This document shows positions 39,622-42,554 of a stretch of DNA of 64,000 bases, piece by piece; position 1 is the stretch's first letter; the number at the start of each line of letters is the position of its first letter. Location of the stretch: sequence record ON286972. One strand, given 5' to 3'. Origin of the DNA: Escherichia phage A4. The notes beneath the pieces were generated by a model, which saw nothing but the letters and a program-made list of their open reading frames with translations, made no database searches and was not told the origin of the DNA. Made by a program: the position numbers and the translations under genes.

Positions 39622-40689
39622 ATGTATAAATTTTATTTTAATGAAAATAACGAGAAGGTATATTTCCATGAAGAATTAGGTATGCGTTTCGAATGGATGC
39701 GTCCCGAAGATTTATCACCAAAATTAATTAAAACATCAAAAACACCTAAAGAACATTTTGATGAAATAATAGAAAAAGGATATAATATTTTAGGATTTGC
39801 TATAACATCAAGTGATGAATGGAAATCTAGTTTTACAAGAACTGTTGTTGAAAAAGATGGTATTATATATACAAAAAGAAATATAAATGATATAAAAACG
39901 AAAGGTATGAAATATATCATTGGGAAATATGACAATGAAAATTATAGATATTATCTTTATAAGACTTCAAAAAGTCTAATGACTGGTGAATGTGAATTAC
40001 TTTTAGAACAACCAATAATTAAAGATAAAAGAACCAAATTAACTTATAAATGCTTAAAATGTGGTCACGTTGATGAAATGGAAATTAGTAATATACAAAG
40101 TGGTCAGGGTTGCTCTATTTGTCGATTTGAAAAAACCAGATTAGCACACGCATTCACCACCGCTGAATTTGTTGAACGAGCAAAAGAAATTCATGGTAAT
40201 GTATATAACTATTCAAAAGTCATCTACATTAATAGTAGCACTCATGTTGAAATAATTTGTAAAAAACATAATAATTCTTTTTATATCATTCCAAATTTTC
40301 ATATAGCAAAAAATAAAAATCAAGGTTGCCCAATATGCTCATCTGAACATACTGAATCCAGAGCTAGTAGAGAAATAACACGTTTTTTAATTGAAAATGG
40401 TATAAAATTTAATAAAGAACAAACATTTAGTGACTGTAAAAATAAAATGTTATTAAGATTTGATTTTTATTTGGTTGATTATGATATTTGTATTGAGTAT
40501 GATGGTAAACAACATTTTGAGAAATCACCTCATTGGGGTGGAGAAGATAAATTGAAAAACATCAAGGATAACGATACTATAAAGACACAATATTGTGAAA
40601 AGAATTTTATTAAATTAATACGTGTAACATATTATGAAGACCACTTAACTGTATTAAAAAAACATCTTTCAGAGGAAGGTATATTATGA
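39622..40689 (+). CDS. Zn-ribbon protein with C-terminal endonuclease-like domain (possible free-standing homing endonuclease)
   Basis: multiple CxxC pairs; C-terminal RFDFYLVDYDICIEYDGKQHF resembles PD-(D/E)xK/DUF559-type motif; gene markedly more AT-rich than neighbours. Confidence 0.35.
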   Translation: MYKFYFNENNEKVYFHEELGMRFEWMRPEDLSPKLIKTSKTPKEHFDEIIEKGYNILGFAITSSDEWKSSFTRTVVEKDGIIYTKRNINDIKTKGMKYIIGKYDNENYRYYLYKTSKSLMTGECELLLEQPIIKDKRTKLTYKCLKCGHVDEMEISNIQSGQGCSICRFEKTRLAHAFTTAEFVERAKEIHGNVYNYSKVIYINSSTHVEIICKKHNNSFYIIPNFHIAKNKNQGCPICSSEHTESRASREITRFLIENGIKFNKEQTFSDCKNKMLLRFDFYLVDYDICIEYDGKQHFEKSPHWGGEDKLKNIKDNDTIKTQYCEKNFIKLIRVTYYEDHLTVLKKHLSEEGIL

Positions 40690-41798: not shown

Positions 41799-41884
41799 AA
41801 CTCTGGGACAAGAGAACGACTTCTGATATAATAATTGTATCTGGGCATCATTGCTATTAAGAGATAAGATTATGCGTTATAGTT

Positions 41885-42301
41885 GTGGCATTATATTTTA
41901 TCGTGATGGTCAGATACTTGTTGGACACACAACACGGACAGAAGCATTGGGATTTACCAAAAGGTAAAACCGAGGGCAATGAAACATTTGCTGAAGCTGC
42001 TGTTCGTGAGTGCTATGAAGAAACAGGATTTGAGATTGATGAAAAGGATCTTCTCTTATTAGGTGATGTATCATACAGGAAAGGGAAAAGATTAGTTTTA
42101 TTTTTCTATACAGCTAAATACAAACCCGAACCGGATGAACTGAAGTGTAACAGTACTTATACCAATCGATATGGTAAAAGCCATCCAGAATTGGATAAAT
42201 TCATGTACATTGATGTTCAAGATTGTCAAAAGTATTTGACCGAACGAATGTGTAACAGTATAATTAAAGCTGTTAAATTGTTTCAAAAAAATAAAGGATA
42301 G
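41885..42301 (+). CDS. Nudix hydrolase (apparent frameshift at 5' end)
   Basis: perfect Nudix box GKTEGNETFAEAAVRECYEETGF; expected N-terminal strand MRYSCGIIFYRDGQILVGH is in the -1 frame starting ATG 41872. Confidence 0.5.
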   Translation: MALYFIVMVRYLLDTQHGQKHWDLPKGKTEGNETFAEAAVRECYEETGFEIDEKDLLLLGDVSYRKGKRLVLFFYTAKYKPEPDELKCNSTYTNRYGKSHPELDKFMYIDVQDCQKYLTERMCNSIIKAVKLFQKNKG

Positions 42302-42305
42302 TTAT

Positions 42306-42554
42306 ATGAAAGTGAAAATTTATGGTCGCACGACTGGTTGTAATTTCTGTGATACAGCAAAAGCAATTTGTGAGAACAATTCATTTGAAATGGATTTTAT
42401 CGATGTGGTTTCTGAAGGTATTGATGGTGCTAAACTATCAGAAATTTGCGGTGAGCCAGTTCGTCAAGTTCCACAAATTTTCGTAAATGATGAGTATGTT
42501 CCTGGTGGATGTACTGGTTTTGTTAACGGGCTAAAAGAAGGTCGCTGGAACTAA
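42306..42554 (+). CDS. glutaredoxin/thioredoxin-fold protein (NrdC-like)
   Basis: CNFC active-site motif near N-terminus, ~82 aa. Confidence 0.55.
   Translation: MKVKIYGRTTGCNFCDTAKAICENNSFEMDFIDVVSEGIDGAKLSEICGEPVRQVPQIFVNDEYVPGGCTGFVNGLKEGRWN

Follow-up and report, generated by a model that had tools for sequence, protein, structure and literature searches.

Does a phage gene whose reading frame is broken by a single base still encode a complete enzyme, and if so, by which route? The question is raised by a Nudix gene in Escherichia phage A4. The stretch of its genome analysed here (hereafter the window) is 64,000 nt long, AT-rich (35.6% GC) and has nearly all its genes on the + strand, as are all the features of the Nudix locus described below. 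In the first-pass annotation the gene had been described as split by a +1 shift, with an ATG at 41872 in frame 0 and the Nudix motif in an overlapping ORF at 41885–42301, and both translation and orthologue alignment confirm these coordinates. Translation from ATG 41872 begins with MRYSCGIIFYRDGQILVGHTT, reads in full MRYSCGIIFYRDGQILVGHTTRTEALGFTKR and ends at the TAA at 41965–41967, which closes a product of 31 amino acids; the remaining split genomes have their zero-frame stop two codons further upstream, and the product there is 29 amino acids long. The +1 frame is open from 41885 to the TAG at 42299–42301 and carries the Nudix box, and the third frame contains many stops at this locus. 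Removal of a single base, C41935, joins the two open frames into one product of 142 amino acids.

The Nudix fold and its genomic setting

Codons 1–21, read in frame 0 from 41872 to 41934, encode the first two beta-strands of the Nudix fold, and the resulting peptide differs little or not at all from the N-terminus of intact orthologues. Alignment with these orthologues, which read ACN ACN GGN at this point, identifies the base at 41935 as the inserted C that splits the gene. Codons 22–142 (GQKHWDLPKGK...KNKG) and the stop codon follow in the +1 frame at 41936–42301, a segment recognised by its Pfam NUDIX match and its dN/dS. Within it, GKTEGNETFAEAAVRECYEETGF at 41963–42031 matches the Nudix box consensus G-x5-E-x7-R-E-U-x-E-E-x-G-U, with a Cys at the first U. 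The Pfam NUDIX profile (PF00293) is matched with an E-value of 3.7e-12 by the +1 ORF and of 2e-13 by the joined product; the match starts at profile position 26 for the +1 ORF alone, and at position 7 both for the joined product and for the intact orthologue P0005. The joined product and P0005 are 90% identical (127 of 141 aligned residues, no gaps), an agreement much greater than chance would give. The AlphaFold model of P0005 (pLDDT 90) places beta-strands at residues 2–8 and 14–20, which is exactly the part that the split gene encodes in frame 0. Judged by this model, the complete alpha/beta/alpha Nudix fold with its N-terminal strands would be obtained only when the two frames are joined.

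Among solved structures, the closest are the Aquifex Ap4A hydrolase 3i7u, E. coli RppH and the Nudix domains of Dcp2. The enzyme is related to RppH and the Ap4A hydrolases; no NCBIfam equivalog was matched by the Nudix product at its cut-off, and our best guess for the putative substrate is RNA 5' ends or dinucleotide polyphosphates. The intact orthologue of Klebsiella phage fENko-Kae01 (L011 466–897, ENKO_223) bears the GenBank note 'identified with LC-MS/MS analysis', and therefore the Nudix protein is made in a related phage with an intact allele. The paper on the mass spectrometry of the phAPEC6 virion makes no mention of Nudix.

Upstream of the gene, a promoter scan predicts a sigma-70-like promoter with an extended -10 element at 41805–41832 (GGGACA, a 16-nt spacer and TG-n-TATAAT). 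It has 10 of 12 consensus matches and a TG before the -10, and its TGATATAA and GGACA are unchanged across the alignment with relatives. By reading of the sequence, a purine-rich, Shine-Dalgarno-like leader (AGAGATAAGA, 41860–41869) lies a few bases 5' of ATG 41872, and its GAGATAAGA is kept in the aligned split-clade relatives.

The gene order CCA-adding enzyme, Nudix, glutaredoxin is also kept in the relatives, and the spacing of the last two genes varies. In the window, the Nudix stop ends at 42301 and the glutaredoxin ATG is at 42306, with 4 nt between them. In Ecwhy_1, BF17 and fEgEco12 (L006, L007 and L018; 507–917), four extra codons at the 3' end bring the Nudix ORF to 136 amino acids, and the ORF overlaps the glutaredoxin gene by 11 nt. 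Nudix and glutaredoxin are fused in several relatives, as single ORFs in Hallingskeid (L012 443–1126) and EJP2 (L013 415–1092) and in the proteins P0009, P0013–P0016 and P0020; the fusions comprise 225–227 amino acids and match PF00293 and PF00462. Furthermore, related jumbo phages encode a homologue of a ribosome hibernation factor (PF02482, Ribosomal_S30AE; L047 877–1194 and L051 1397–1708) a few genes 5' of the CCA enzyme. With a peptidyl-tRNA hydrolase and a macro-domain protein encoded there besides the CCA-adding enzyme, this neighbourhood has many genes that act on translation and RNA ends.

Split and intact alleles among jumbo phages

The closest matches to the window are the Asteriusvirus jumbo coliphages, at about 78–84% nucleotide identity (PBECO4, 121Q, phAPEC6, UE-S1, ph0011, Turkey5, JNE01, Ecwhy_1, BF17, fEgEco12 and others). 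More distant matches are jumbo phages of Salmonella, Klebsiella, Erwinia, Yersinia, Serratia, Cronobacter and Pectobacterium. The first-pass annotation had suggested a comparison with orthologues as a check, and this comparison, of 32 split with 31 intact loci, establishes the split as real and conserved. The same C insertion is found in all 32 PBECO4/121Q-type Asteriusvirus phage and metagenome-contig loci examined, which represent 17 haplotypes. This set consists of 13 GenBank genomes examined directly and at least 19 contigs derived from metagenomes or SRA data; searches of the JGI metagenomes and IMG/VR for split alleles returned 121Q-like copies only, and the additional split haplotypes came from Logan and ENA assemblies. 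By comparison, a single intact ORF of 140–147 amino acids, reading ...IGHTTGQxHWDLPKGK..., is present in 31 of 31 loci from other relatives (Munch, fENko-Kae01, Hallingskeid, EJP2, fHe-Yen9-04, Serratia BF, GAP32, CBB, and contigs from IMG/VR and JGI). The nearest intact alleles are P0005 and P0006, both from SRA assemblies.

Alignment with the 31 intact loci narrows the junction, previously placed at about 41925–41940, to 41929–41938. Here the split loci always read CA(C/T) ACA ACA C GGA CA(G/A), and the intact loci (n=31) show 19 different sequences of the form ACN ACN GGN CAR, with GCA in place of the first Thr codon at one locus. The inserted C stands directly 5' of the codon for Gly-22, a residue that is nearly invariant in the family.

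A sequencing indel had been one of three explanations offered at first, next to a recent pseudogenisation and programmed frameshifting. Single-base indels are indeed a common artefact, but the inserted C lies outside any homopolymer, and the identical insertion recurs across the GenBank genomes and the metagenome or SRA-derived contigs. Since these 32 loci were independently sequenced or assembled, by many laboratories and from metagenomes, a sequencing or assembly error in the window is for all practical purposes excluded.

On balance, the comparison favours a scenario in which a single C was inserted in an ancestor of the PBECO4/121Q-type jumbo coliphages and has been retained ever since, the window being a diverged member of this group. 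One origin of the insertion is the simplest reading. Simple monophyly of the split allele was considered and is contradicted by a neighbour-joining tree of 1 kb, in which the window groups with the intact allele of L047. According to sliding identity, this grouping stems from a mosaic middle of the gene, the flanks being of split-clade type: the window's flanks are nearest to UE-S1 and ph0011, and the middle of its Nudix gene is nearest to L047. Between 41990 and 42170 the window differs from L047 (3120–3300) at 5 positions per 60 nt, as against 12–16 for other split-clade phages, and the genes flanking the window's Nudix gene show the opposite pattern. The mosaic points to recombination within the Nudix gene, 3' of the frameshift site. 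Because the gene is locally mosaic, part of the synonymous variation upstream of the insertion could have been imported from intact alleles, rather than having arisen after the insertion.

A further feature of this region is an ORF of 355 amino acids with a treble-clef zinc-finger domain (PF14311) at 39622–40689 (+) of the window, 5' of the CCA-enzyme gene and overlapping its start by 4 nt. The alignment of the window with UE-S1, ph0011 and L047 collapses upstream of about 40674, and the metagenome contig L054 has a 355-amino-acid ORF of the same kind at the same place. This ORF looks like a mobile, homing-endonuclease-like insertion, and it could drive the local mosaicism.

Selection on both sides of the junction

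Among members of the split clade, the 114 codons 3' of the junction have a dN/dS of 0.04–0.07 at a dS of 0.5–2.1, in the same range as in the intact clades (0.04–0.11), and the variable sites of the +1 segment are distributed 76/23/11 over codon positions 3/1/2. Upstream of the insertion, eight sites vary in this clade: seven occupy the third position of a frame-0 codon, and the remaining one gives a Val/Ile difference; the chance that at least seven of eight sites fall on one stated phase is about 0.003. The dN/dS of this stretch is 0–0.12 when it is read in frame 0, versus 0.55–1.5 in the annotated +1 frame, and all split haplotypes encode the upstream peptide MRYSCGIIFYRDGQIL[VI]GHTT. The last synonymous polymorphism of frame 0 is CAC/CAT at 41926–41928 and the first of the +1 frame is CAG/CAA at 41939–41941, so that the coding phase switches between 41928 and 41941, an interval of 12 nt. 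From these two positions it follows that the frame is handed over within ACA ACA C GGA (41929–41938), the sequence that is invariant in the split loci and that we take as the putative shift site. These are the observations expected of a +1 frameshift: one protein is laid out in two overlapping frames, 0 and then +1, the arrangement is kept in diverged relatives, and purifying selection acts on frame 0 upstream and on frame +1 downstream of one site. Taken together, the comparative data indicate that the +1 frame break in this phage Nudix gene is real, clade-wide and maintained by selection.

An old pseudogene, or a deliberate knock-out of Nudix in the E. coli-infecting lineage, would leave no functional product and would account for a disrupted frame at a site with no known bacterial slippery motif. 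However, dN/dS stays at the level of the intact clades up to a dS of about 2, the constraint is frame-specific on both sides of the junction, and no further stop or indel was found across 16 haplotypes of the split clade, the exception being CMSTMSU, whose record is UNVERIFIED and holds the only extra indel. The dN/dS near 1 and the accumulating lesions that mark a pseudogene were thus not found. We regard such a loss of function as very unlikely, and the same combination of low downstream dN/dS and frame-0-specific constraint upstream speaks strongly against the recent pseudogenisation proposed earlier. In CMSTMSU (L005, MH494197), the +1 ORF is broken by an additional deletion of 1 nt, located in a G run 213 nt downstream of the Nudix ATG. 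The deletion is probably an assembly error rather than a second lesion, since the record is flagged UNVERIFIED_ORG and its annotation is fragmented.

A side observation concerns the rate of synonymous change. In the split clade, dS in the 21 upstream codons (41872–41934) is 0.17–0.67, several-fold below that of the downstream stretch 41936–42276 (about 0.7–2.1). A comparable decrease is seen in two of five intact pairs, and a stretch as short as 21 codons does not allow a decision. The low upstream dS might be a sign of an additional constraint acting 5' of the shift site.

The main rival to recoding is a two-piece or truncated protein made from an internal ATG. Accordingly, there would be a frame-0 peptide of 29–31 amino acids and a separate C-terminal fragment initiated at ATG 41906–41908 (or at GTG 41885), and the two would assemble non-covalently or the fragment would act alone. 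The +1-frame ATG is present in every split genome, and in the Asteriusvirus annotations that we opened, CMSTMSU excepted, it is the annotated start (equivalent to 41906 of the window) of a 'nudix hydrolase' of 132–136 amino acids. The region before this ATG is AU-rich, and selection on both parts would be equally expected for a two-piece enzyme. On the other hand, reading of the sequence found no Shine-Dalgarno element before ATG 41906 comparable to the one before ATG 41872, and the internal ATG sits within the translated frame-0 ORF. The same ATG also occurs in the intact relatives as a by-product of the codons CGT GAT GGT, and it therefore did not evolve for separate initiation. The fragment itself would, on the structural model, lack strand 1 and have strand 2 swapped for the +1 residues MVRYLLDTQH, which are unconstrained (dN/dS about 1). 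The frame-0 tail after the junction (RTEALGFTKR and variants) is likewise not conserved. We therefore consider this possibility unlikely, though still worth weighing.

Orthologues that start at the internal position and have lost the upstream strand would have argued against a split gene. Such starts are annotated, yet all of these genomes keep the strand in frame 0: in each annotated split genome that we examined, the upstream ATG is present, followed by the same 21 codons of frame 0 and by the identical frame break. The GenBank annotations that start from the internal ATG omit two core beta-strands and are probably wrong.

The proposed shift site and its counterparts

If the gene is neither an artefact nor decayed nor made in two pieces, how is the frame restored? 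Our preferred reading, probable though by no means assured, is that of a fixed indel that is compensated by +1 ribosomal frameshifting at ACA_CGG_A. Ribosomes would start at ATG 41872, read 21 codons in frame 0 and pause with peptidyl-tRNA-Thr on ACA (41932–41934) in the P site and CGG (41935–41937) in the A site. A fraction of them would then take Gly-tRNA on GGA (41936–41938) in the +1 frame, skipping C41935, and would complete a full-length Nudix enzyme of 142 amino acids (...GHTT-GQKHW...), as long as its intact orthologues, and the unshifted ribosomes would terminate after 31 codons. The predicted junction peptide of the shifted product is DGQILVGHTTGQK in the window and DGQILIGHTTGQNHWDLPK in PBECO4. 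Programmed frameshifting is, on the comparative evidence, the best supported of the three explanations first proposed, but the slipperiness of the CA repeat that came with it is not conserved. The supposed slippery run, CACACAACAC, is specific to the window, every other split genome reads CATACAACAC, and the conserved element is ACA_CGG_A.

A slow zero-frame codon in the A site is a further property of +1 frameshift sites, and in the window's genes CGG is used less than any other sense codon (5 of 18,780 codons, or 0.27 per thousand; one of the five comes from a questionable ORF on the minus strand). E. coli decodes CGG with a single minor tRNA, tRNA-Arg(CCG). The four-fold codons ACA ACA GGA at the site never vary in the split clade, in which 22 of 37 such columns do; the chance of invariance at the site's synonymous positions is about 0.07, and the result is weakly significant. 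No other CGG-linked 0/+1 split was found on the window's coding strand. In the minimum-free-energy fold, the site itself (CACGGACAG) is base-paired to codons of the Nudix box, CUGUUCGUG (z = -2.8). As a stimulatory RNA helix this candidate was rejected: its pairs are all invariant coding positions without covariation, and it encloses the site instead of following it on the 3' side. At the shift site, folding gave no RNA structure backed by covariation.

The same full-length product could also be reached by other routes, namely a -2 slip on CACACA, slippage of RNA polymerase, excision of the C by mRNA editing, or decoding of a four-base codon by a phage tRNA. In the window alone, the tRNA-Thr on ACA 41929–41931 could re-pair two bases back (41927–41929), and fEgEco12 encodes six tRNAs, two of which are tRNA-Thr(UGU) and read ACA. 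However, CACACA occurs in the window only, the other 16 haplotypes having CATACA, and the junction CA(C/T)ACAACACGGACAG has no homopolymer run of the kind associated with polymerase slippage (usually at least 6–9 A or T). A quadruplet-decoding tRNA was considered and rejected: no tRNA genes were found in the 64-kb window, both tRNA-Thr genes of fEgEco12 have ordinary 7-nt anticodon loops, and the number of tRNA-Thr genes does not track the split (apparently one in PBECO4-type phages, two in fEgEco12-type phages and one in Klebsiella phage RaK2, which has an intact allele). We thus attach little probability to these routes.

How does the proposed ribosomal frameshifting at ACA_CGG_A compare with known systems? 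The programmed +1 site of E. coli prfB (RF2) is CUU_UGA_C. It shares with the Nudix case the bacterial ribosomes, the +1 direction, a slow A-site codon and a shift that is obligatory for the full-length protein. It differs in its stop codon, its Shine-Dalgarno-like stimulator 3 nt upstream and the re-pairing of CUU on UUU, none of which is present at the Nudix site: the A-site CGG is a sense codon, ACA would face CAC without pairing, and reading of the sequence 5' of the shift site found no Shine-Dalgarno-like stimulator, with only the GG of a Gly codon there. Characterised bacterial +1 sites such as prfB depend on re-pairing. Since the tRNA on ACA would have nothing to pair with after a +1 step, we infer, rather than observe, the ribosomal shift, its exact codon, its efficiency and any regulatory use, be it a lower dosage or a dependence on the supply of tRNA-Arg(CCG).

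Yeast provides two programmed +1 frameshift sites, GCG_AGU_U of Ty3 and CUU_AGG_C of Ty1. As at the Nudix site, the A-site codon is a 'hungry' sense codon and the site is short, without the need for a downstream pseudoknot. In Ty3 the P-site tRNA does not re-pair, which is what the step from ACA to CAC would require at the Nudix site. Both yeast systems differ in having eukaryotic ribosomes and a measured efficiency, and Ty3 has a 3' stimulator, while the Nudix shift is deduced from sequence comparison. Ty3 and Ty1 frameshifting is discussed in PMC5009743.

In the mitochondria of glass sponges, accepted +1 sites have a T or C inserted 5' of GGA, which creates the very rare codons UGG_A or CGG_A (PMC5009743; PMC2267718). 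The resemblance between the hexactinellid cox3 and nad6 genes (PMC2267718; PMC5009743) and the Nudix site is close: a single pyrimidine stands before a conserved GGA (here C41935 before GGA 41936–41938), the zero-frame codon is rare, both flanks are conserved in their own frames, and the shift is deduced by the same comparative logic. The sponge system differs in its mitochondrial ribosomes and reduced tRNA set, whereas the Nudix case involves E. coli ribosomes and a phage gene. Moreover, RNA editing was excluded by cDNA sequencing in the sponges, whereas the phage site is known from comparison of genomic DNA, and the sponge genes encode essential respiratory subunits, whereas the phage Nudix protein is an accessory enzyme.

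Compensation of a genomic indel in translation is also known from the CCC_AGG site of rpoB and from the 'savior indel' of herpesvirus thymidine kinase (as described in PMC10861913 and PMC5009743). For the 1-nt rpoB insertion, suppression by E. coli ribosomes through a +1 shift at a rare Arg codon reportedly reaches an efficiency of 5% (as described in PMC10861913). As in the Nudix gene, the rpoB codon is a rare Arg codon, low efficiency can suffice and the unshifted product is useless. However, the rpoB and thymidine kinase cases are mutants from the laboratory or the clinic whose sites, CCC or G runs, are slippery, whereas the Nudix allele is fixed and maintained across a diverged natural phage clade and its P-site codon is not slippery. 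In the mitochondrial nad3 of birds and turtles, PMC7814300 describes an evolutionarily persistent 1-nt insertion that is thought to be corrected by translational frameshifting, as proposed for the Nudix gene. The nad3 case differs in being mitochondrial and in having multiple reported origins; for Nudix, a single origin is simplest.

Literature searches for the frameshift in this gene found no published description. Judging from the alignments, it is most probably a new coliphage example of the corrective type, with a rare codon before GGA, that is known from mitochondria. Should its efficiency be low, the insertion would be a 'savior indel' that lowers dosage and is leakily compensated, and not a tuned signal. 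A more far-reaching version of the proposal is that selection has made ACA_CGG_A an efficient +1 recoding signal like those of Ty3 or mitochondria, which would act without P-site re-pairing on E. coli ribosomes, possibly aided by a phage factor such as the phage-encoded tRNA-Thr(UGU), and which would make the amount of an RppH-like RNA 5'-end or dinucleotide-polyphosphate hydrolase depend, during infection, on how much of the minor tRNA-Arg(CCG) is available. We consider this version doubtful.

To our knowledge, very few natural +1 frameshift sites have been described in bacteria and phages, and the well-studied ones need tRNA re-pairing at a stop codon. If the more far-reaching version is true, we know of no earlier natural +1 frameshift at a 'hungry' sense codon that is conserved in a phage of a model bacterium. 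Until now, yeast Ty3 and mitochondria have been the main cases for which out-of-frame A-site binding at a hungry codon was argued, and the non-slippery ACA_CGG_A would, if the shift is real, allow this model to be tested by E. coli genetics. More generally, apparently broken phage genes can be functional, and gene callers mask such cases by choosing internal starts.
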